Below are positions 22,018-31,794 of a DNA stretch of 45,536 bases, in pieces. The notes under the pieces are model-generated. The model saw only the letters and a list, made by a program, of their open reading frames with translations. It had not been told where the DNA came from and did not search any database. This DNA is from Escherichia phage vB_EcoS_WFI. Numbering within the stretch: the first letter of the stretch is position 1; each line of letters starts with the position of its first letter. The position numbers were made by a program, and so were the translations under genes. The DNA is taken from sequence record NC_073058.1; one strand, 5' to 3'.

Positions 22018-22625
22018 CCACATTTAAATTGTACGGCGTCTTAGGACGTCGTTTTGGTAAAGTGCATAAGCTGGACTGCTTCACACCTGGCGAGGGTATC
22101 ACCGGCCTATGCGTGAAGTTGCCAGGCTTACAGGACTTTCTAATGTCGGCCCACCTGGAAAACATGATGTTCAAGGTGCGCAAGGGTAATCACACAATGA
22201 CCGGCTACGACGAGTTGGGTGAGTTCCACGGCGACCGCGTAGTTACCATCGCGCCGGTTATGACTGGTGCTAAAAGCGGACTTGGACAATTGCTGGCTGG
22301 CGTAGCTATCGTGGTGGCGTCGTTCTACACTGGCGGGCTTGCCGCTGCCGCTTTCGGGGCTTCCGCTGCGACCGCCGCCGCTATCGGAACGGCGACGTTT
22401 TCGTTCGGTATGTCGCTTGCGCTGGGCGGCGCTATGCAATTGCTGTCACCGCAACCGAAAGGATTGCAGATACGGCAGGACGTGGATAACAAGGCGTCGT
22501 ATGCGTTCGGCGGGCCGGTAAACACGACCGCGCAAGGCACAGCACTTGGTGTATTATGGGGTGAGCGTGAGATCGGCGGCGCTATTATTTCAGCCGGAAT
22601 TGTAACCGAGGATTTGAACGAATGA
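22008..22625 (+). CDS. tail assembly protein I-like
   Basis: Position; Gly/Ala-rich hydrophobic C-terminal half; overlaps K and J. Confidence 0.65.
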   Translation: MAMTTFKLYGVLGRRFGKVHKLDCFTPGEGITGLCVKLPGLQDFLMSAHLENMMFKVRKGNHTMTGYDELGEFHGDRVVTIAPVMTGAKSGLGQLLAGVAIVVASFYTGGLAAAAFGASAATAAAIGTATFSFGMSLALGGAMQLLSPQPKGLQIRQDVDNKASYAFGGPVNTTAQGTALGVLWGEREIGGAIISAGIVTEDLNE

Positions 22626-25600
22626 CGATTATCTACGACGTCACGGGCCATAAAGGCGGCGGTGGCAAACAGCACACCCCACAGGAGACGCCTGATAGCC
22701 TGCATTCGCTGGCTAAAATCCGCATCTTGCTCGCACTGGGCGAGGGCGAATTTGAAGGCATTCCCGACCCTAACGAATTACGGCAGCGTGTATACCTGGA
22801 CGGCACACCGATCCAGAACGCCGACCTGTCGGATAACTTCCCCGGCGCGCGCGTGGAGTTCCGCCCCGGCACGCAGCACCAGGATGTGATTCACGGTTTT
22901 TCAGCGGTGGAAAGCGAGCAAACAGTAGGCGTAAAACTGGAACAGGGACAGCCGTGGGTCCGCCAGATTTCGGACACCAGTCTGGACGCGGTGCGTATTC
23001 GAATCGGTATTCCGGCCCTGTACACCAACGAAGATAACGGCGACCTGGTGGGCGGGCGCATCGACTATAAAATCGTTGTGTATACAGATAACGCCGATCC
23101 GCGCGAGTTCACATTCGCTGCCGTTGGTAAAACAATGTCGCTGTACGAGCGAGATCACCGCATCGAATTACCGTCTAACGTTAACACCGGCTGGCGCGTG
23201 GAGGTGATCCGCACAACGGCAGACTCCACATCGGCGAAAGTGGTCAACGATATCCAGGTACAATCCATTACTGAGATTATCGACGCCCGCCTGCGTTACC
23301 CGCTAACCGCGCTGTTGTTCGTGGAGTTCGACGCTAAGGCTTTCCAGAACATCCCGCGCGTGTCAATCAAGTGCAAAGGCCGCAAAGTGCTGGTCCCGAA
23401 CAACTATGACCCCGTGAATCATACCTATTCTGGTAACTGGGACGGTACATTTAAACGCGCCTGGACGGATAATCCTGCGTGGCACTGGTACGATATTTGT
23501 ATTACTGAGCGCTTCGGCCTCGGTCGTCGTGTCAAGCCACAAATGCTAAACCGTTACGCACTCTACCAGATTGCGCAGCGCTGCGACCAGATGGTCAGTG
23601 ACGGCAACGGCGGTCAGGAAATCCGATTTAAGAATGATATGTACATTCAATCGCAGACCGACGCCTGGACCGTGCTGAAGGATTTAGCGGCTATCTTTGC
23701 TGGGATGACCTGGTGGGGCAACCAGATGCTGAATATTGTCAGTGACCAGCCGGTCGCAGCGGTATCGCATACTATCACCAACGCCTCGGTTATTGATGGT
23801 CGATTCGACTACGCATCGGGAAGCCAGAAAACTCGGTATTCCACGTTCTCTGTAGCCTACGGCAACCCGAAAAACCATTACGAGGACGCCATCGCAACGG
23901 GCCAGCGTGTCGAACTGGTGCGCCGCCATAAGATTAACCGCCTTGATATTACGGCGATCGGCTGTACGCGTGAATCTGAAGCGCAACGCCGCGGACACTG
24001 GGCGCTAATCTCCAACCAGCTTGATCAGCAAGTTAGCTTTAAGGTTGGCATGGAGGGGTTATTCTTTATTCCGGGGAGCGTAGTCGCGATCGCAGATACT
24101 AACATTTCTGGCGGCTTCGAGACACGCGGCGGACGTCTGTTGTCAGATCCGGGCACGCGCACCGTGCTGAACACGGACAGCGAAATCACGTTCCGCCCTG
24201 GCGATAAATTCCTGGTGCGCACCGATAGCGGTAATGTGGAGACTCGCGAGATTGCCAGCGTCAACGGCAACCAGGTCACGCTAAAAACCGCACTGGACGC
24301 CGACCCAATTCCTGATCAGCCGTTTTGCGTTGATGGCGATGATATCCAGTTGCAGAAGTTCCGCATCACCGACCTGGAATATGACGACGCTACCAGCACT
24401 TTCTCGGTGCGCGGGATTGAGTACAATGACAGCAAATATGATGCCGTTGATAATGGCGCGCGTCTTGATCCGGGTATCTTCACGCAAGTGCCGGACGGTG
24501 TAATGAAGGGGCCAGAATCCGTTACCATCACCCCGTCGCAGATCTCATCACAAGGCCAGCTAATCACCAACGTGGATATTGTTTTTCCGCCGGTGAAGGA
24601 TGCCGTTGTGTACGAAATCCAGTGGCGACGTACCAGCTTGCAGAATCTGGAAATCCAGTGGGGCAACGACTGGGTTAACATCCCCCGCACGGCGTCGAAT
24701 GGTGCGCATATCCCGAACGTGTTTTCTGGTAACTACCAGGCACGCGTCCGCGCTATCGGTATGGGCGAGATTTCATCCCCGTGGGTGTCATCCGCCATCA
24801 CGCCGGTGGAGGGTCGTCTTGGTGTGCTTAACGCGCCTATCATCACCAACGCGATTTCGGGCCTTCACCAAATTTTGTGGAAGTGGAATCACAACAACGC
24901 CGCAACGGATATTTCGTATACCGAGCTTGAAGTACGCAAGCTGGGCGAAACGGAATGGAAATTCCTAACCAACGTCCCATATCCGGGGTCGGACTATGCG
25001 CAAACGTCGCTGGAGTTCGGGATCTACCAGCAGTTGCGCGCACGCGTAGCGGATAAAATCGGCAACCTGTCAGACTGGTCCGATCCGTTCGACGGGCAGG
25101 TGAGTGACAAAGTTGACGAGTACATGCAGGGGCTTGATGACGAGTTCTTGACTTCCGAGGACGGTAAACACTTCCAGGAAGCAATCGACACCATTCCGCA
25201 AGGCATCTATGAGTCAATGCTTACGGACGCCCAGCAGTTATTCAACGCCCGCGCCGAGTATAAAGGGATTTATGCAGAAATTACGGTGGCGTATAACGTG
25301 GCGGCGGACGCTCACGAAGCCGTAGCGCAACTGGAAACGTTAATCGGCACGCGCCTTGACGACGCCGAAGCGTCAATCCACACGTTGCAGACCGCGCAAA
25401 GCACGCATGAACAGGCGTTCGCCCAGTACCAACAAACTGTTGCCGCTAAGTTCGGGGAGCAGGAAGCTGCCATCCAGCAGGTACAAACGGCAACGGCAGA
25501 CGTAGCGGGCGCGCTGGCGGAGTATAAGACCCAGGTCGCGGCACAGTTCGGTCAGCAGTCCGCAGCTATCGAGCAGAAGATGACGTCCTCGTTTAACCAT

Positions 25601-26068
25601 GCTGGCGGTAGCGCCACATACAGCCTTAAGGCTGGCGTGACGTATAACGGGACTTACTATGATGCCGGTATGCAGCTTTCCGTCGTGGCGGAAGGTGGCG
25701 CGGTTAAATCACGCATCGCGTTCAAGGCGGACCAGTTCTACATCATGCACCCATCTAACGGGACGCTCTCGTCCGCGTTTATCGTTGACGGCGGGCAGGT
25801 GTATATTGACACGGCACGCATCAAGAACGCGTCTATTAACTTCGCGCAGATCACGGACACGCTGCAATCCAATAACTGGAATCCAGGTAACAGCGGCTGG
25901 CGTATCGCGAAGGATGGCGGGGCGGAGTTCAACAACGTTACGGTACGCGGCAACTTGTTCGCAACTACGGGTAACTTTGGATTCTCCGGCGGGTCAGTGA
26001 CTATCGACGCAACGGGCGTCAACGTGCCATTACCTGGAGGGGGCAGGGTGAAAGTCGGGACGTGGTAA
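22622..26068 (+). CDS. central tail fiber / host specificity protein J-like
   Basis: 1148 aa; follows I; size and position as lambda J. Confidence 0.85.
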   Translation: MTIIYDVTGHKGGGGKQHTPQETPDSLHSLAKIRILLALGEGEFEGIPDPNELRQRVYLDGTPIQNADLSDNFPGARVEFRPGTQHQDVIHGFSAVESEQTVGVKLEQGQPWVRQISDTSLDAVRIRIGIPALYTNEDNGDLVGGRIDYKIVVYTDNADPREFTFAAVGKTMSLYERDHRIELPSNVNTGWRVEVIRTTADSTSAKVVNDIQVQSITEIIDARLRYPLTALLFVEFDAKAFQNIPRVSIKCKGRKVLVPNNYDPVNHTYSGNWDGTFKRAWTDNPAWHWYDICITERFGLGRRVKPQMLNRYALYQIAQRCDQMVSDGNGGQEIRFKNDMYIQSQTDAWTVLKDLAAIFAGMTWWGNQMLNIVSDQPVAAVSHTITNASVIDGRFDYASGSQKTRYSTFSVAYGNPKNHYEDAIATGQRVELVRRHKINRLDITAIGCTRESEAQRRGHWALISNQLDQQVSFKVGMEGLFFIPGSVVAIADTNISGGFETRGGRLLSDPGTRTVLNTDSEITFRPGDKFLVRTDSGNVETREIASVNGNQVTLKTALDADPIPDQPFCVDGDDIQLQKFRITDLEYDDATSTFSVRGIEYNDSKYDAVDNGARLDPGIFTQVPDGVMKGPESVTITPSQISSQGQLITNVDIVFPPVKDAVVYEIQWRRTSLQNLEIQWGNDWVNIPRTASNGAHIPNVFSGNYQARVRAIGMGEISSPWVSSAITPVEGRLGVLNAPIITNAISGLHQILWKWNHNNAATDISYTELEVRKLGETEWKFLTNVPYPGSDYAQTSLEFGIYQQLRARVADKIGNLSDWSDPFDGQVSDKVDEYMQGLDDEFLTSEDGKHFQEAIDTIPQGIYESMLTDAQQLFNARAEYKGIYAEITVAYNVAADAHEAVAQLETLIGTRLDDAEASIHTLQTAQSTHEQAFAQYQQTVAAKFGEQEAAIQQVQTATADVAGALAEYKTQVAAQFGQQSAAIEQKMTSSFNHAGGSATYSLKAGVTYNGTYYDAGMQLSVVAEGGAVKSRIAFKADQFYIMHPSNGTLSSAFIVDGGQVYIDTARIKNASINFAQITDTLQSNNWNPGNSGWRIAKDGGAEFNNVTVRGNLFATTGNFGFSGGSVTIDATGVNVPLPGGGRVKVGTW

Positions 26069-26073
26069 ATGAG

Positions 26074-26097
26074 AAGGGGCCATCCGGCCCCTTTTTT
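26074..26097. terminator. terminator between convergent genes
   Basis: AAGGGGCCATCCGGCCCCTT hairpin followed by TTTTTT. Confidence 0.6.
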
Positions 26098-27061
26098 AAT
26101 AGATATTAGGAATGACGAGTAACGGGGTGGGTACGGCAATATTTTTGCCCGGCATTTGGAATTGCTGCCGTGAGTAGTTGCCAATGACGCGGTTTTTGGC
26201 GATGCGCACATTATTACCCGCCATTCGTATCCCGTTCATGCGCACATGGTTGTATCCGCTGTTGTTCTCAATGAGCGCACCGGTATATGAAAGCTGGATC
26301 AGACTATTACCGATGTGCTGGTCGCCGCCACCGATATGAATCGTGCGGTCGTAGACAAACGGCTTGTTTACCGTCGAGAACGTGACCTGCCCCTGGTTGT
26401 TAGTCATGGTGATACCGGTCCCCGGTGAGGGCGGCGTATTGTTGAATATTACCAGGTCCATATCAACGGCAGCGCCTACGTCGTCAATCCCGCCATAGGA
26501 CGCATTACGGACGATAATACTTCCGCCATCGAAGCCAACCGATACGTTGCCGTCGTCCCAGCGCGCGAACGGGACACCGCCGACTGGTAGCGGCATACTT
26601 CCGTCTACCCGCACACGCTGCGCATATCGGCAGGTCATTAGCCGTGCTACGTTGGATATGGCGGTGAAGTCTGTAGAGTTAGCTACCAGAATCCCCGCAT
26701 TGCGTGACCCCACCGGCAGCACTTCCATAATCACCCCGCCCCATGTTGGAAGCCCGCTGTATGCGTTATAGGCGTCCTCACCGCGCAAGGTGATCCCGCC
26801 ATCCCCGTTACGTTGTATCGACGTCACATAAAACGGGTCTGGCAAGACCAGGGTCTGGTCGAATACTTCCATCACTTCTACCGGATTAGTTAGGGCAACG
26901 ACCAGTTCGGACCCTGGAGTCAGCGGTGTGTTAATGGTCAGCGTCTTGTCAGACTGACAGCGCTGATTAAAGGTAGTGCAAAACGACGGAGCGCGAAGGC
27001 CCGCGGTTATCTCCATGACAGGTCTACCGTCGTTGTAGTCGATAAGTATTCCAGCGCCCAT
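26096..27061 (-). CDS. hypothetical Gly/Asn-rich beta-type protein (321 aa), opposite strand
   Basis: ATG at 27061, 2 nt after the stop of the upstream lipoprotein gene; Gly/Asn/Val/Thr-rich composition (my guess: beta-rich); no recognised motif. Confidence 0.5.
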   Translation of the reverse strand: MGAGILIDYNDGRPVMEITAGLRAPSFCTTFNQRCQSDKTLTINTPLTPGSELVVALTNPVEVMEVFDQTLVLPDPFYVTSIQRNGDGGITLRGEDAYNAYSGLPTWGGVIMEVLPVGSRNAGILVANSTDFTAISNVARLMTCRYAQRVRVDGSMPLPVGGVPFARWDDGNVSVGFDGGSIIVRNASYGGIDDVGAAVDMDLVIFNNTPPSPGTGITMTNNQGQVTFSTVNKPFVYDRTIHIGGGDQHIGNSLIQLSYTGALIENNSGYNHVRMNGIRMAGNNVRIAKNRVIGNYSRQQFQMPGKNIAVPTPLLVIPNIY

Positions 27062-27063
27062 TA

Positions 27064-27285
27064 TTACCACTCCCGCGATTTAACTGATACTGTACCTGAG
27101 AAATTGCCGTCGCTATCGGCAGATAGGCCAGTGAAGCGCATGTCCACGTCTCCGGCAGGGACTTTCTGCCCGTCAACGTAACGCAACATGCAGCTTCCGT
27201 AAGCCACCGTAATGCAATCACCGTTGTTGCGTTCTACAGCACAACCGGACAAAAGAACAGCACAAATCATAATTAAAGTTTTCAT
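27064..27285 (-). CDS. small lipoprotein, Cor-like superinfection-exclusion candidate
   Basis: RBS AGGAGA before ATG; signal peptide with lipobox LLSGC; Cys-rich 73-aa product; location next to tail-fiber genes as for cor genes in T1/phi80-type phages. Confidence 0.45.
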   Translation of the reverse strand: MKTLIMICAVLLSGCAVERNNGDCITVAYGSCMLRYVDGQKVPAGDVDMRFTGLSADSDGNFSGTVSVKSREW

Positions 27286-27365
27286 GTTATCATCTCCTAT
27301 ATTTGGTTGAGTTTTAGTATTACACCGCTCGATCAAGAATGCAACCAATTTATGAGGATTCAGCT

Positions 27366-29408
27366 ATGGCAGCGGGTACACTATCCGTAACGAATAACAG
27401 CACCGCGGTGACTGGAGACGGCACAACGCTTACCGCGCTGAAGGCGGGCGACTTCCTGTCGCTGGTAGTAGGGCAAGTCCCTTACACTATTGCTATTGCA
27501 TCCATTGAGAGCGACACCGCGCTTACACTGGCGCTGCCGTTCGATGGCCCAACGGCAACCGGCCTCGCATGGGATAGCGTGGCGCGCGATACCATGTCCC
27601 TAGCAACGATGGGTGTAACCGTCCAGGCGCAGAAAGCACTACGCTTGATGATCGCGGATGAAAACAACTGGCGTGCAATCTTCGGCGACGCTGAAGAAGT
27701 CACGGTAACGCTGCCGAACGGGCAAGTTATGCAGGGAATGTCATGGGGCTACCTGTCATCCTTGTTAAAGGAAGTAGACCCCGTCGAAATGCGCGACCTG
27801 CAACAACAAGCCGCCGCATCGGAAGCCGCCGCGCTGGTGTCACGCAATGAGGCCGAAGGCTTCAAGAACGATGCCAATACCATCAAGACGCAGACCGACC
27901 AAATCAAGGCTGACACGCAGGCAATCCACGACGCCACCAATACGATCAAGACGCAGACCGACCAGATTAAGACCGATACGCAGGCTATCAAGGACCAGAC
28001 CAACCAGATTAAGACTGATACTGGCGTTATTCGCGATGAAGCCAATACTGCGAAGACTGACGCGCAAGCCGCCAGCACTGCCGCGCAGGGATTTCGCGAT
28101 CAGGCCGAAGAATGGGCGCAAAGCGTAAACGCGGATAATCTGCTAACTAAATCAGGAAACCTGGCAGGCGTTGCCGATGTGCAGACGTCGCGAACCAACC
28201 TCGAACTGGGGGAGGGTAACGAGCCGATTTTCAAGGGCGCCCTTGCTGTTAAATCGGCCCCCGACACCGTATCGGCACAGGGCGGAATGTTCCAGTCTAA
28301 GCTGCGGAATAGCGACGGCGACGATGTGGTTACAACGCAAAGCTACGCGGAAACACAACTTGGGGTCGGAAAGCACACGATCGGCGTAATCACGCCTTCG
28401 GGGGCACATTACTATCAACTCGACGTCGAAGGTAACTTTAACGGATTCAAGCGCCTGTCATCCGCGGCGGGTGGCGAAGTTCTCCTAAACGGCGTCGATA
28501 GTAACACCGTGCAGCTACTGTCGCTTAACCCACCAAAGCCGAACGACTACACCGGATTCACGCGGTATAACTGGCAAAATAGCGCGGTGTTTACCGGGCC
28601 GATTCGTCAGGGAGGGACGGGGCTTGAAGCCTATGAGGTCTACGTCCTGAATGCTGGCGTGGCGGAATGGCGCTACCGGTTTAGACCCGATGGAAAGATG
28701 TCCGCCAGACGACTTATCGCCGAAGGTTTCCAGACCGGCTGGGACCAGCCTAACAACTACGGGGACAGCGGTGTGTGGCTATCTGACGTCGGAAATAACG
28801 ACGGCGGCTGGGTTCCTGCAATCTCCTGGCGGTCCCAATCAACCGGCGGTTACCCTATCCGCGCCACGTGGGGGCTTATCTCTCAGGGCGCGGCGAACTG
28901 GCCCCGTGCGGCATTGCGATGCCGAGGGGATGGCGAAAACTGGACAAACTTCGAGTTCGTCGTTAACAGTTGCGATATCCAGGTCAGCGGTACATTCGGC
29001 GCGTACACGTTCTCCAAAGCGCCTACGTCCGACCGAGACCTGAAGCACGATATTAAGTACACGGAAGGGAAAGAAAGCTACGATCGCGTGATGCAGTGGC
29101 TTCCCACAATGTTTAAGTATAAAGGGTCGGAAATCCAGCGCTACGGCCTTATCGCGCAGGACCTGGTGAAAATCGATCCGCAATACGTGAAGATTATTCC
29201 AGGCGCACTTAAAAACCCGGACCTCGTAGGGGCTGAAGGATTCAAAGCCGAAGACGGCGACTACTACGACGACACGCTGGCACTTGACAGCAACGTCATG
29301 TTAACAGATATGGCGTGCGCGATGGTCTTCATGGGGCGTAAAGTGGAAGATATGCAGAAAGAACTGGAGGAATTGAAAGCTGCCGTAGCGGCACTGACCA
29401 AAGCATAA
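27366..29408 (+). CDS. tail fiber protein with C-terminal S74-type intramolecular chaperone domain
   Basis: N-terminal conserved domain; 21-aa tandem repeats TIKTQTDQIK(A/T)DTQAI; C-terminal motif TSDRDLKHDIKY...GLIAQDLVKIDPQYV typical of autocleaving chaperone domains. Confidence 0.75.
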   Translation: MAAGTLSVTNNSTAVTGDGTTLTALKAGDFLSLVVGQVPYTIAIASIESDTALTLALPFDGPTATGLAWDSVARDTMSLATMGVTVQAQKALRLMIADENNWRAIFGDAEEVTVTLPNGQVMQGMSWGYLSSLLKEVDPVEMRDLQQQAAASEAAALVSRNEAEGFKNDANTIKTQTDQIKADTQAIHDATNTIKTQTDQIKTDTQAIKDQTNQIKTDTGVIRDEANTAKTDAQAASTAAQGFRDQAEEWAQSVNADNLLTKSGNLAGVADVQTSRTNLELGEGNEPIFKGALAVKSAPDTVSAQGGMFQSKLRNSDGDDVVTTQSYAETQLGVGKHTIGVITPSGAHYYQLDVEGNFNGFKRLSSAAGGEVLLNGVDSNTVQLLSLNPPKPNDYTGFTRYNWQNSAVFTGPIRQGGTGLEAYEVYVLNAGVAEWRYRFRPDGKMSARRLIAEGFQTGWDQPNNYGDSGVWLSDVGNNDGGWVPAISWRSQSTGGYPIRATWGLISQGAANWPRAALRCRGDGENWTNFEFVVNSCDIQVSGTFGAYTFSKAPTSDRDLKHDIKYTEGKESYDRVMQWLPTMFKYKGSEIQRYGLIAQDLVKIDPQYVKIIPGALKNPDLVGAEGFKAEDGDYYDDTLALDSNVMLTDMACAMVFMGRKVEDMQKELEELKAAVAALTKA

Positions 29409-29412
29409 TTAG

Positions 29413-29436
29413 AAGGGGCCATACGGCCCCTTTTTT
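29413..29436. terminator. terminator between convergent tail fiber and leftward genes
   Basis: AAGGGGCCATACGGCCCCTT hairpin followed by TTTTTT. Confidence 0.6.
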
Positions 29437-30010
29437 AGTTTGAGTTTTCCCAATCCATTTTGCGCCGCACCAGCGGACTCTCATAATATTCCTTGCCTTC
29501 TACTTCCACCAACGGCCAATCGTTCACGATTACGTACGGTTCCGCAATATCCTCAATCACGCCGTGCGCGCTATGTTGTCCGAACGATACACCCACCAGG
29601 ATAACACCGGCAACTCGACGGGTTAGATACTCGCGAGCGCAACGGGCTTCTACCAGTCCGCGACGGATGCCGCTGGTGGCTTTGACCTCGTAGGTCCAGA
29701 CGGCGTCAATCATGTGCTCACGGAAGTCGGGGCCGGACTTAACCTTGCGCTTACCGACCATGATAATATCGCCGCGGTCGATAGTATTGGCGCTAAACAG
29801 GCCGGTACGCATAAGTAAGCCTTGCGGGATACAACTACGCCCGCCTGCCTGCCCTTCAAGGTACATGCCCGCAAACATCTCGCCCAGCACACCGACAAGA
29901 CGGCTTTGCTTGCAAGCGTCAGACTTTAAGCGCCACTGGTCAAACTCGACGCTTGCTAACATTGCCGCTATGTGGAATTGTTTACCTGTTATTTCATATT
30001 CGCCGTACAT
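29435..30010 (-). CDS. hypothetical protein, possible PD-(D/E)xK nuclease fold
   Basis: 191 aa; motif GDIIMVGKRK...IDAVWTYEVKA resembles D...E-x-K; weak. Confidence 0.4.
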   Translation of the reverse strand: MYGEYEITGKQFHIAAMLASVEFDQWRLKSDACKQSRLVGVLGEMFAGMYLEGQAGGRSCIPQGLLMRTGLFSANTIDRGDIIMVGKRKVKSGPDFREHMIDAVWTYEVKATSGIRRGLVEARCAREYLTRRVAGVILVGVSFGQHSAHGVIEDIAEPYVIVNDWPLVEVEGKEYYESPLVRRKMDWENSN

Positions 30011-30636: not shown

Positions 30637-31107
30637 CTATTGGTTGCAAGTAAATTTTGCTACGTTTATAGAATAAATTTTCGGGACCAGATCGCCGCAC
30701 GCGCGACGTATGGCTTCGATATTCTTCGGGCAGTCTTCAATGATGACCAGTTCGGACACGTCCGCATAGCACACCATTTTGAACACCGCGCACGCCTTAA
30801 ATTCCGGCGGTGGGGTGTCATCCAGCATGTGGCGCATGAACAACCGGCCTGTCGGGAATACTTTCAACTGTTCAGCGGTAGTCTCCCAGCATTCGCGCTG
30901 CCGGTTAGTCAGATACGCTATCTCGAAGCCTTGCTCTTTGTACATGCGCAGCAACGGCAGCATGTCCATGTTCAGGTCTTCGCGGACGTGCGCTTTGTGC
31001 CACTTCGCCCAAAAGGTTGATTTGGTTTTTATGCCGGGCACCAGGTCAGCACGCGCATCACTTGAACCATTAATAACGCCATCCAGATCACAAATCAGTA
31101 GTTTCAT
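30637..31107 (-). CDS. HAD-superfamily phosphatase (polynucleotide 3'-phosphatase or nucleotidase-like)
   Basis: N-terminal motif LICDLDGVI (DxDGT-type). Confidence 0.55.
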   Translation of the reverse strand: MKLLICDLDGVINGSSDARADLVPGIKTKSTFWAKWHKAHVREDLNMDMLPLLRMYKEQGFEIAYLTNRQRECWETTAEQLKVFPTGRLFMRHMLDDTPPPEFKACAVFKMVCYADVSELVIIEDCPKNIEAIRRACGDLVPKIYSINVAKFTCNQ

Positions 31108-31328
31108 TTTAAGCTCTCAATAAGGGTGTGACGGGCGCTTCGCGCCGTAAAGGAGTTGCATACAAAATGGCAACGCTTGGTTATGACAAGCCAACCGGTA
31201 AGGTCAAGGCCCATGATGGATTCGGGTCTGGATACGCGCATCACACGGTCGCGGCGCGGGTCGATGAAGAAGTCCCATTGCATTTGGTCTACTACCGCAG
31301 GGTCGCGGTCAACGATTAAGATATTCAT
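31104..31328 (-). CDS. hypothetical protein (74 aa)
   Basis: ORF track; ATGA overlap with downstream gene. Confidence 0.4.
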   Translation of the reverse strand: MNILIVDRDPAVVDQMQWDFFIDPRRDRVMRVSRPESIMGLDLTGWLVITKRCHFVCNSFTARSARHTLIESLK

Positions 31329-31794
31329 GTAGTTCTCTCTCGCTCATTATTTCAATTTGTGCGCTGCCGATGGGCGGCGCTTCGTCAAATATTATCAATT
31401 GCTGGCACTTGTTATTGCTCGGCCCAACTTCGCCGGTCACAGCATGGATGAATCGCACACGCCAGTCCAGAAGAATTATCATGTTTGCAGTCTTCCGGGC
31501 CAGCCTCGCCCACTTCGTCGATGTGTCTTGATTCAGTAGCATTACCGTCCGGCGTCCGTGCGCAGCACACTCGACCCACGGCAGCGGATCGGAGTACGGC
31601 GGGTTGCACCACTTCCACCCTTTCAACTCTGACCAGTCCGCATCAAGCGCGCTATGCTCTGCCGTGAAGTAGCGCGGTAGCAGGTGATTGGCGTCGCTTG
31701 CAGCCATATCGTAACGAAATCGGTACTTACGGCGCAGCGGTTTAAATAAAGCTGGCGGAGTGCGCCAGCTATCCTTTTGCTCACTCTTCTGCAT
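31309..31794 (-). CDS. phage-type DNA N6-adenine methyltransferase (Dam-like)
   Basis: Motifs WRTPPALF, DMAASDANH, and NPPYS. Confidence 0.8.
   Translation of the reverse strand: MQKSEQKDSWRTPPALFKPLRRKYRFRYDMAASDANHLLPRYFTAEHSALDADWSELKGWKWCNPPYSDPLPWVECAAHGRRTVMLLNQDTSTKWARLARKTANMIILLDWRVRFIHAVTGEVGPSNNKCQQLIIFDEAPPIGSAQIEIMSERELHEYLNR

Follow-up and report, generated by a model that had tools for sequence, protein, structure and literature searches.

Results

The fibre gene and its genomic setting

The window (the whole stretch of DNA analysed, 45,536 nt of Escherichia phage vB_EcoS_WFI, NC_073058.1) carries on its forward strand an ORF of 680 codons plus a stop codon (Table 1). The ORF list lets the gene begin further upstream (27339–29408, +, 689 aa). 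The start taken in an earlier note on this DNA, ATG 27366, is the better one because GAGGA (27354–27358) lies 7 nt upstream of it and because in relatives the annotated fibre gene starts at the homologous ATG. The in-frame ATG at 27339, which has no ribosome-binding site, is probably not used.

Outside the fibre gene, the window is 98–99% identical at the nucleotide level to the Dhillonviruses vB_EcoS-101114B2, 22664B1 and CHD2B1, and the fibre gene itself is 97% identical to theirs. On this sequence identity the window is assigned to the genus Dhillonvirus. The gene for gpJ is followed by a reverse-strand receptor-binding protein locus (RBP/lipoprotein), the fibre gene and a convergent conserved gene. 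The same order was found in the annotated genomes of 22664B1, GeorgBuechner and RuthEpting, the last two of which name the product 'lateral tail fiber protein' and 'tail fiber protein', respectively. In the three phages that share the tip allele described below, the GenBank label is 'hypothetical protein'. The protein matched PHROG tail-fibre families with E=5e-116. Together with the position of the gene and the 80% identity of aa 1–282 to RuthEpting Gp29, this bears out the earlier reading of the product as a tail fibre. Taken as a whole, the locus is best explained as the one that codes for the lateral (side) tail fibre in a Dhillonvirus siphophage of E. coli, and we hold this explanation with high confidence.

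The terminator scan detected a hairpin with a 10-bp stem including 6 GC pairs, AGAAGGGGCC-ATAC-GGCCCCTTTT, 3 nt past the fibre stop codon and in front of the convergent gene (29435–30010, −). It is probably an intrinsic terminator. The main argument is its position, the number of terminator-like sites in the region being not above the shuffle expectation. The scan for σ70 promoters between 27000 and 29700 found two sites against 1.4 expected, which is chance level, and no promoter is claimed for the divergent spacer 27286–27365. Three alternative-frame ORFs were rejected as genes: 27749–28078 (−) and 27847–28128 (+), both of which overlap the fibre repeat region, and 28651–29043 (+).

Table 1 Features of the fibre locus (feature, position in the window, strand, evidence)
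Lateral tail fibre gene	27366..29408	+	ORF list, GAGGA, relatives' starts, PHROG
N-terminal virion-attachment (anchor) module, aa 1–138	27366..27779	+	genus conservation, AlphaFold2
Alpha-helical coiled-coil shaft, aa 139–254	27780..28127	+	heptads, autocorrelation, AlphaFold2
63-nt (21-aa, three-heptad) tandem repeat, 2.1 copies	27874..28003	+	TRF score 176
Linker, main junction of conserved proximal and variable distal half	28128..28220	+	similarity end points
Distal beta-rich receptor-binding tip, aa 286–554	28221..29027	+	mosaicism, AlphaFold2
Intramolecular chaperone / Peptidase_S74, aa 555–680	29028..29405	+	PF13884, invariant S555/D556/K560
Putative intrinsic terminator, GC-rich hairpin then T-run	29411..29434	+	terminator scan

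Anchor and shaft

The anchor consists of a small beta domain (aa 1–72; AlphaFold2 strands at aa 5–72, pLDDT ~80–85) and a subsequent alpha/beta part. The proximal part of the protein (aa 1–271/282) is 80–91% identical to more than 100 cluster representatives from contigs of ~44–45 kb and to named Dhillonviruses, and the anchor does not differ from that of 22664B1 in a single amino acid. Residues 1–72 weakly matched PDB 23gd_B, 'distal tail protein gp20' (sequence E=0.0035, profile E=7.7e-7). The Foldseek search of the aa 1–300 model against PDB gave only weak matches (E>=0.016) for the ~75-aa beta domain, namely small beta-barrels of endosialidases, of a depolymerase and of lambda tail-tip proteins, and this evidence is insufficient for naming the anchor fold. 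The anchor alone matched no Pfam family at E<=10.

The shaft contains 16 consecutive heptads (aa 143–254) in which position 3 is always hydrophobic and position 7 is Thr, Ala or Val. Its a positions are taken by Thr/Ala and its d positions by Ile/Val/Phe. Residue autocorrelation peaked at lags 7, 14, 21, 28 and 35, and AlphaFold2 predicted a single helix at aa 139–253 (115 residues, roughly 17 nm) with pLDDT 89–98. The coiled coil that the earlier note had proposed is thus supported by both the continuous heptad pattern and the helix model. It is probably parallel and trimeric, as membership in the S74 family and the biology of fibres suggest. A polar or Ala/Thr core combined with Ile is typical of trimeric coils. 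Matches of the shaft to coiled-coil families, Lpp and T7 gp17 all stayed below threshold, and NCBIfam yielded nothing beyond sub-threshold coiled-coil noise.

Tandem Repeats Finder placed the repeat at 27874–28003 (period 63, 82% matches), within a few bases of the 27880–28005 given earlier. The copies 27874–27936 and 27937–27999 are 81% identical, and a further, degenerate one is shifted by 42 nt. The best identity of adjacent 63-nt units was 51/63, against a maximum of 34–35/63 when the codons of the whole gene or of the coil alone were shuffled. The copies read NTIKTQTDQIKADTQAIHDAT (aa 171–191) and NTIKTQTDQIKTDTQAIKDQT (aa 192–212), and the motif described earlier lies at aa 172–187 and 193–208. 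The elementary repeat unit is the heptad, and the 21-aa repeat is a three-heptad unit of the shaft. The coil differs in length in 30 of 114 relatives, always by 7, 14 or 21 aa, and all these indels were placed within aa 163–224 of our protein. Such heptad-only indels illustrate that a repetitive coiled-coil shaft can vary in length while keeping its register.

Linker, tip and module exchange

The linker (aa 255–285) contains the widespread fibre motif NLLTKSGNLAGVADVQTSRTNLELG (aa 257–282), which matches repeated units of the short tail fibre gp92 (PDB 9zd7, profile E=1.8e-11). In coil-less variants such as P0013, the anchor is joined straight to this motif. The linker is also the place where similarity to most relatives ends: 129 of 140 phage records match only the 5' 40% of the fibre gene, their nucleotide similarity stopping at nt 824–854 of the gene (28162–28192 in the window) and the protein matches at aa 271–298. 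Judged from the sequences, module exchange takes place at about aa 140, at aa 240–280 (the linker motif) and at about aa 440, outside the repeats. The repeats had been proposed as a recombination hotspot. This holds for the in-frame, heptad-multiple indels, which cluster there, but not for the junctions of module exchange, which lie elsewhere (aa 266–298, ~140, 240 and 440).

The tip was modelled by AlphaFold2 as beta-rich with pLDDT 80–94 over most of its length, and its sequence suggests that it can be divided near aa 440 into a proximal (aa 286–440) and a distal (aa 441–554) sub-module. The tip alone (aa 283–553) matched no Pfam family, carbohydrate-binding or other, at E<=10; this includes beta-helix, hydrolase and lyase families. 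With the monomer model of aa 271–680, Foldseek gave no PDB match at E<=1e-3 (best E=1.6e-3), and the top matches were discarded as unrelated beta-propellers (TM ~0.1). We treat this empty fold search as an artefact, a single chain having been modelled where the real structure would be an intertwined trimer.

The tip allele is rare. Only 45 cluster representatives were found at E<=1e-3 among 1.84 billion proteins, and among annotated phages the full allele occurs only in three Dhillonviruses isolated on uropathogenic E. coli (UPEC), Henu5_1 having just the last ~110 aa of it. The earlier suggestion that the tip is a host-range determinant is backed by the mosaic pattern of the 129 records, and the same conclusion was drawn in the BASEL papers (PMC8594841, PMC11990801).

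C-terminal chaperone

Residues 555–609 matched the Pfam family PF13884 (Peptidase_S74) over the complete model (positions 1–58/58), scoring 36.3 bits where the family cut-off is 22 (E=6.9e-9). The match includes both TSDRDLKHDI (aa 554–563, 29025–29054) and GLIAQDLVKIDPQYV (aa 594–608, 29145–29189). Cleavage is predicted between Thr554 and Ser555 (Ser codon 29028–29030), with Lys560 (codon 29043–29045) as the putative general base. Ser555, Asp556 and Lys560 were invariant in a 51-sequence alignment of relatives, and Thr554|Ser555 and Lys560 are in register with Thr1263|Ser1264 and Lys1269 of T5 pb1. The chaperone profile also matched the C-terminal part of DT57C LtfA (PDB 8hqz_d, E=2.8e-5), and the fold matches in BFVD were L-shaped fibres and tail fibres of the S74 type. 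At the sequence level the self-cleaving chaperone named in the earlier note is supported, and the domain is predicted to cleave itself off at Thr554|Ser555. The released domain had been estimated at ~130 aa; its predicted size was corrected to 126 aa (Ser555–Ala680, 14.3 kDa).

S74 chaperones form the very C-terminal end of fibres or spikes and comprise ~105–135 aa. They have a mixed alpha/beta part and a 'tentacle' made of a beta-hairpin, and their last helix builds the trimeric coiled coil; the position and size of the domain found here fit this layout. The monomer model shows short helices, the strand pair 608–611/637–640 and a long C-terminal helix (aa 642–679), and is least confident around the cleavage site (aa 552–565, pLDDT <50). 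In T5, an upstream Asp (Asp1239) and an Arg contributed by a neighbouring chain (Arg1250) serve as folding sensor and oxyanion hole. The T5-type Asp/Arg folding sensor is absent here, the equivalent positions Ser−14 and Ser−25 being occupied by Ser541 and Glu530, and the T5 motif D-x4-LGWGSGR (LGxxxxR) does not occur upstream of Ser555. A functional equivalent of the sensor may possibly reside elsewhere, for example in the nearly invariant Lys551.

Discussion

A proposed model of fibre maturation and function

The modules suggest the following course of events. The C-terminal 126-aa chaperone would, as a member of its family, put three chains in register and fold them. After folding of the trimeric tip, Lys560 would activate Ser555 for the cut between Thr554 and Ser555, as the homologous K1F endosialidase and T5 pb1 suggest, so that the 14-kDa chaperone is released and a mature chain of 554 aa (59 kDa) remains. 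The N-terminal 138 aa, conserved throughout the genus, presumably attach the fibre to the tip of the tail. Residues 139–254, with their heptads and predicted helix, would form the ~17-nm shaft, a parallel and probably trimeric coiled coil. Slippage or unequal recombination among the 21-aa repeats may shift the shaft length by whole heptads with unbroken register, and host-range modules may be swapped at the conserved motifs that flank the shaft and lie inside the tip.

Genus literature and the mosaic pattern suggest that a surface glycan of variable structure, O-antigen being the most likely one, is bound by the tip, which would allow the O-antigen layer to be crossed before the central fibre engages the terminal porin receptor. 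For the lateral fibres of Dhillonviruses, O-antigen was proposed to be the primary receptor (PMC8594841, PMC11990801), and O16 O-antigen and its glycosylation (glucosylation) by GtrABS affect Bas83–85 (PMC11990801). By analogy, a variable surface glycan, O-antigen, is the likely receptor of the tip described here as well.

The alternative that the tip recognises a conserved receptor (LPS core, capsule, ECA or an outer-membrane protein) and serves as a primary adhesin is unlikely in our estimate, and it has several points in its favour. Neither the Pfam search nor the fold search was informative for the tip, some Dhillonviruses depend on the LPS core being intact (PMC8594841), and Dhillonviruses from the same O25b host carry another tip, e.g. 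101114BS4 (P0028). However, a hypervariable target would account for the extreme allelic diversity of exactly the tip segment, the homologous tips of T5-like L-shaped fibres belong to O-antigen binders according to the literature, and the effect of O16 O-antigen and its glucosylation on Bas83–85 concerns lateral fibres. A narrower version of the O-antigen reading takes the tip allele for a key to the O25b O-antigen of ST131 UPEC, with the heptad-step shaft length tuning the reach to the thickness of the glycan layer. It comes to mind because the full allele was found only in this phage and in three Dhillonviruses from O25b ST131 hosts. These isolation hosts were rejected as receptor evidence since the study in question had used O25b strains almost throughout, and we consider this version rather improbable. 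If both of its parts were true, engineers of phages against ST131 would have in this fibre a targeting module that is ready for swapping.

Two further alternatives concern the nature of the protein rather than its receptor. The S74 domain could remain attached after maturation, either capping the distal end of the fibre or forming part of its binding surface. The missing Arg/Asp sensor of T5 and K1F and the low confidence of the model around the cleavage site would agree with this, and chaperone-like 'caps' of fibres of other phages are the subject of PMC10579305. Nevertheless, the invariance of Ser555, Asp556 and Lys560 in 51 diverse relatives points to selection on catalysis, the Pfam match is above threshold, and the domain is cleaved in every experimentally studied member, K1F endosialidase and T5 pb1 (PMC4690869), which makes retention very improbable. 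Least credible of all is an enzymatic tailspike (a glycan depolymerase or deacetylase) in place of a purely binding fibre. It is suggested by the first description of S74 chaperones on endosialidase tailspikes and by matches of a profile including the N-termini of relatives to the phage 'depolymerase' structures 7vz3, 7vyv and 7lzj. These matches, however, cover only the N-terminal anchor of other members (profile positions 1–176) and not the tip, which has only ~270 aa, matches no hydrolase, lyase or beta-helix family and gave no significant hit in the PDB fold search, while the long coiled coil is fibre-like.

The preferred reading remains a binding lateral fibre with a chaperone predicted to be released. 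A design of anchor, coiled-coil shaft, swappable tip and chaperone has already been described for the genus; the finding is correct and ordinary and leaves the current understanding of phage fibres unchanged. Its practical value lies in annotation: module boundaries, a predicted scissile bond and natural exchange junctions, of which those at aa ~140, 240–280 and 440 provide coordinates for tip swaps when the host range of small siphophages is engineered.

Comparison with known systems

For the shaft, known proteins offer analogies. Residues 158–271 weakly resemble the shaft of T7 gp17 (163–277, E=0.022), and aa 196–238 the trimeric coiled coil of E. coli Lpp (Lpp56, E=0.3). Neither resemblance is significant as homology, and both serve only as analogies for the shaft. 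The chaperone belongs to the same Pfam family as that of K1F endosialidase (the PF13884 prototype, PDB 3GW6) and shares its Ser/Lys dyad. The likeness is limited to the chaperone, since the passenger in K1F is an enzymatic tailspike.

T5 pb1 (PDB 4UW7/4UW8) is a trimeric fibre whose C-terminal chaperone of ~130 aa is cleaved at Thr|Ser with a Lys five residues downstream (PMC4690869), and which binds O-antigen reversibly and so makes adsorption faster. It shares with the fibre described here the motif TSDxxLKxD[IV] and a C-terminal chaperone of similar size. In contrast to our 680-aa protein, pb1 has 1396 aa, is attached through a collar protein and possesses its own Asp1239/Arg1250 sensor motif. 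No sequence similarity of the tip to pb1 970–1263 was detectable when the family profile was compared by hhalign with pb1(970–1396), nor was there anything significant between the chaperone profile and pb1(1255–1396), where only the cleavage motif was aligned.

Homologues of the tip occur in phages of other families. The tip is ~43% identical over 268 aa to the tips of L-shaped fibres of some T5-like phages (VEc33 gp087, phiLLS, OSYSP) and of Drexlerviridae fibres (atuna gp11), whose chaperones are ~50–90% identical in blocks, whereas their anchors and shafts are different.

Within the genus, RuthEpting (Bas85) Gp29 and GeorgBuechner (Bas16) bas16_0028 are encoded at the same genomic position and in the same orientation, and are 80–88% identical to our protein over the anchor, coiled coil and linker. 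The C-terminal part of Gp29, which belongs to the same S74 domain, is 32% identical to aa 495–679, and its tip is unrelated in sequence to aa 283–494. Gp29 was published as an elongated N-terminal coiled coil followed by a T5-like tip and a C-terminal intramolecular chaperone (PMC11990801).

Identity of the fibre and its genomic context

The tail fibre adds a new, near-identical member to a known fibre family that was described recently. Outside the fibre gene, the window is 98-99% identical to the Escherichia phages vB_EcoS-101114B2, 22664B1 and CHD2B1 (genus Dhillonvirus), and the gene itself shows 97.1-97.4% identity to a gene labelled 'hypothetical protein' in these three phages. The PHROG tail-fibre families matched it at E=5e-116. 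The 22664B1 protein differs in 13 amino acids, four of them in the repeats, six in aa 314-372 and none in the N-terminal anchor. Gp29 of the Dhillonvirus RuthEpting (Bas85), which is 80% identical in aa 1-282 and 32% identical in aa 495-679, was described as a protein whose elongated N-terminal coiled coil leads to a T5-like, receptor-binding fibre tip that carries an IMC domain at its C-terminus (PMC11990801). The architecture deduced in the earlier note (a tail fibre with a coil and a C-terminal chaperone) is therefore the published lateral-fibre architecture of the genus; the observation was confirmed and its interpretation was essentially right.

We numbered the fibre from ATG 27366 because GAGGA precedes this codon at a spacing of 7 nt and the same start is used in annotated relatives. 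The in-frame ATG at 27339, nine codons upstream, lacks a Shine-Dalgarno sequence, and the divergent lipoprotein ORF, in its TTG-extended form, reaches into its first bases; this ATG is a likely reason why annotations differ. Two reverse-strand genes, which overlap by 7 nt, lie between the gpJ homologue and the fibre gene, and the small lipoprotein showed a weak match to Cor-like superinfection exclusion. This interval is the 'bona fide RBP locus', with 96% nucleotide identity to RuthEpting and Haito (Bas85/83) and 84% to Oekolampad (Bas18). This allele was assigned or predicted to be LptD-specific in the BASEL papers (PMC8594841; PMC11990801), so that LptD is probably the terminal receptor of this phage. 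The gene layout is the same in RuthEpting and in GeorgBuechner (Bas16), whose homologue is annotated as 'lateral tail fiber protein'. Further downstream, a 156-aa ORF starts with MKLLICDLDGVINGS, a DxDG motif of the HAD-phosphatase type; its RuthEpting homologue is annotated as polynucleotide kinase, and a Dam-like methyltransferase gene adjoins it.

Features in and around the fibre gene (positions in the window)
Feature	Position	Strand	Length	Remarks
gpJ homologue	22622-26068			Phage_Tail_Tip, FNIII-A_GpJ
RBP locus	26096-27348	-		
DUF6453 ORF	26096-27070	-	324 aa	
Lipoprotein ORF	27064-27285/27348	-		lipobox LLSGC
Fibre ORF, as listed mechanically	27339-29408	+	689 aa	upstream extension 27339-27365
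Fibre gene, likely start	27366-29408	+	680 aa	
Tandem repeat array	27874-28003			period 63, 2.1 copies
GC-rich hairpin and T-run	29411-29434			candidate bidirectional terminator; fills nearly all of the 26-nt gap to the convergent gene
Convergent gene	29435-30010		191 aa	PHROG 10558, conserved in Dhillonviruses
DxDG ORF	30637-31107	-	156 aa	
Dam-like methyltransferase gene	31309-31794			

Repeats and coiled coil of the shaft

Tandem Repeats Finder detected one array in the gene (82% matches, score 176), and a second repeat search found the same two 63-nt copies and a degenerate third one, offset by 42 nt. Adjacent 63-nt windows reached an identity of 51/63 at best, whereas codon shuffling, done 300 times for the gene and 1000 times for just the coil region, never gave more than 34-35; the repeat is therefore no effect of composition. 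The 21-aa tandem repeats claimed previously are thus real, although the basic unit proved to be the heptad. The duplication is not recent, since the peptide copies (aa 171-191 and 192-212) differ in 3 of 21 residues and at five further synonymous sites.

Laid out in sevens, aa 143-254 form 16 heptads in unbroken succession, in which position 3 is L, V, F, I, A or W, mostly Ile, and position 7 is Ala or Thr with one Val; in a/d terms, Thr/Ala occupy a and Ile occupies d. The autocorrelation of residue identity peaked only at lags 7, 14, 21, 28 and 35, and AlphaFold2 (50 aligned sequences) predicted one unbroken helix at aa 139-253 (pLDDT 89-98), all of which bears out the proposed coiled coil. 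Family searches drew coiled-coil proteins (Lpp, T7 gp17, SMC and Rad50) only at sub-threshold scores. A helix of 115 residues is about 17 nm long, and the shaft is probably three-stranded, judging from fibre biology and the S74 family.

Exchange of modules

The repeats had been proposed as a recombination hotspot. Coil length differs from that of the query in 30 of the 114 aligned Dhillonvirus-type relatives, every indel measures 7, 14 or 21 aa, and all of them fall within aa 163-224. Such indels fit slippage of, or unequal exchange between, the heptad-coding repeats, under the constraint that the coiled-coil register must be kept. The main exchange junctions, however, flank the repeats. In 129 of 140 phage records, nucleotide similarity ends at query nt 824-854 (window 28162-28192, aa 266-276), and protein matches end at aa 271-298 in most of 120 relatives. 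The end point falls in the linker NLLTKSGNLAGVADVQTSRTNLELG, a motif also found in unrelated fibres, e.g. in the repeated units of gp92 (PDB 9zd7, E=1.8e-11).

The other junctions were located by window-by-window identity profiles and by reading two sequences directly. Two database relatives of 480 aa (P0013 and P0014, from metagenomic contigs of 27.6 and 20.5 kb), aligned to window 27366-29405, are natural variants that lack the whole coil of about 115 aa: the anchor ends in QVDP and runs straight into the linker motif (SKFLAKSNNLSDVADPAAARGHLGIG), and their distal tip and chaperone resemble those of this fibre at 76-99%. The shaft thus seems to be a module that the fibre can do without. Another relative (P0010, 721 aa, aligned to window 28107-29405) carries an unrelated anchor, resembling the N-termini of the phage depolymerase structures 7vz3, 7vyv and 7lzj, and another coil of SETNAKT heptad repeats, fused at EQWAQSVNADNLL (aa ~248) to a distal half 65-99% identical to that of this fibre; as this fusion shows, an anchor and shaft of unrelated type can precede the distal half. 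Three further relatives (P0003, P0008 and P0060) share only aa ~440-680. Taken together, these end points and junctions place module exchange at about aa 140, 240-280 and 440, outside the 21-aa repeats.

Tip and receptor

The tip (aa 286-554) was modelled as beta-rich, with pLDDT 80-94 over most of the segment, and matched no Pfam family. Its allele is rare: among annotated phages, only the three close relatives carry it in full, and of 1.84 billion cluster representatives, all scanned with HMMER, no more than 45 scored as relatives at E<=1e-3, six of them at E<=1e-30. The next-best matches (~43% identity) were L-shaped tail fibres of T5-like phages, such as VEc33 gp087, whose gene adjoins the collar protein gene, and Drexlerviridae fibres, such as that of atuna. 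Similarity to the tip of T5 pb1 itself was undetectable by profile search or hhalign, and Foldseek with the single-chain model found nothing significant in the PDB.

In the BASEL papers (PMC8594841; PMC11990801), O-antigen glycans are proposed as the facultative primary receptor of Dhillonvirus lateral fibres; a porin is bound by a separate central-fibre module. The same papers show that Bas83-85 must recognise O16 to get across the O-antigen layer and that GtrABS glucosylation blocks this. By homology of anchor and shaft and by genomic context, the same primary-receptor role can be assigned to this fibre. O25b ST131 uropathogenic strains served as isolation hosts for the close relatives; this link is only a lead, because almost every phage in that study, Dhillonviruses with different tips among them, came from such strains.

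Chaperone domain and predicted cleavage

At sequence level, the domain search supported the self-cleaving chaperone proposed from the C-terminal motifs, which were placed at aa 554-563 and 594-608. PF13884 (Peptidase_S74) matched aa 555-609 over the full model with 36.3 bits (cut-off 22), and Ser555, Asp556 and Lys560 are invariant in an alignment of 51 sequences of diverse relatives. The profile of the domain matched the C-terminal part of DT57C LtfA among PDB sequences (8hqz_d, E=2.8e-5), and the fold matches in BFVD were S74 tail fibres and L-shaped fibres. T5 pb1 is cut between Thr1263 and Ser1264, the serine being activated by Lys1269 (PMC4690869). Since NTSDARLKNDV of pb1 and PTSDRDLKHDI of the fibre align in register, the predicted scissile bond is Thr554-Ser555, with Lys560 as the activating residue. 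Cleavage would yield a mature chain of 554 aa (59.2 kDa) and a fragment of 126 aa (14.3 kDa), rather than the ~130 aa expected earlier. The cleavage region is the lowest-confidence part of the structure model.

In T5 pb1, correct folding is sensed by Arg1250 of the neighbouring chain with Asp1239 (PMC4690869). The corresponding motif D-x4-LGWGSGR is absent upstream of Ser555, where the same offsets hold Glu530 and Ser541, and the arginine sensor of T5 and K1F is not recognisable in the fibre; the coupling of cleavage to folding is inferred. The segment just upstream of the predicted scissile serine (aa 541-554, window 28986-29027) has no D...LGxxxxR motif, and RuthEpting Gp29 likewise lacks it. 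Lys551, nearly invariant among relatives, might stand in for the Asp/Arg sensor of T5, and this subgroup of S74 fibres may sense folding differently.
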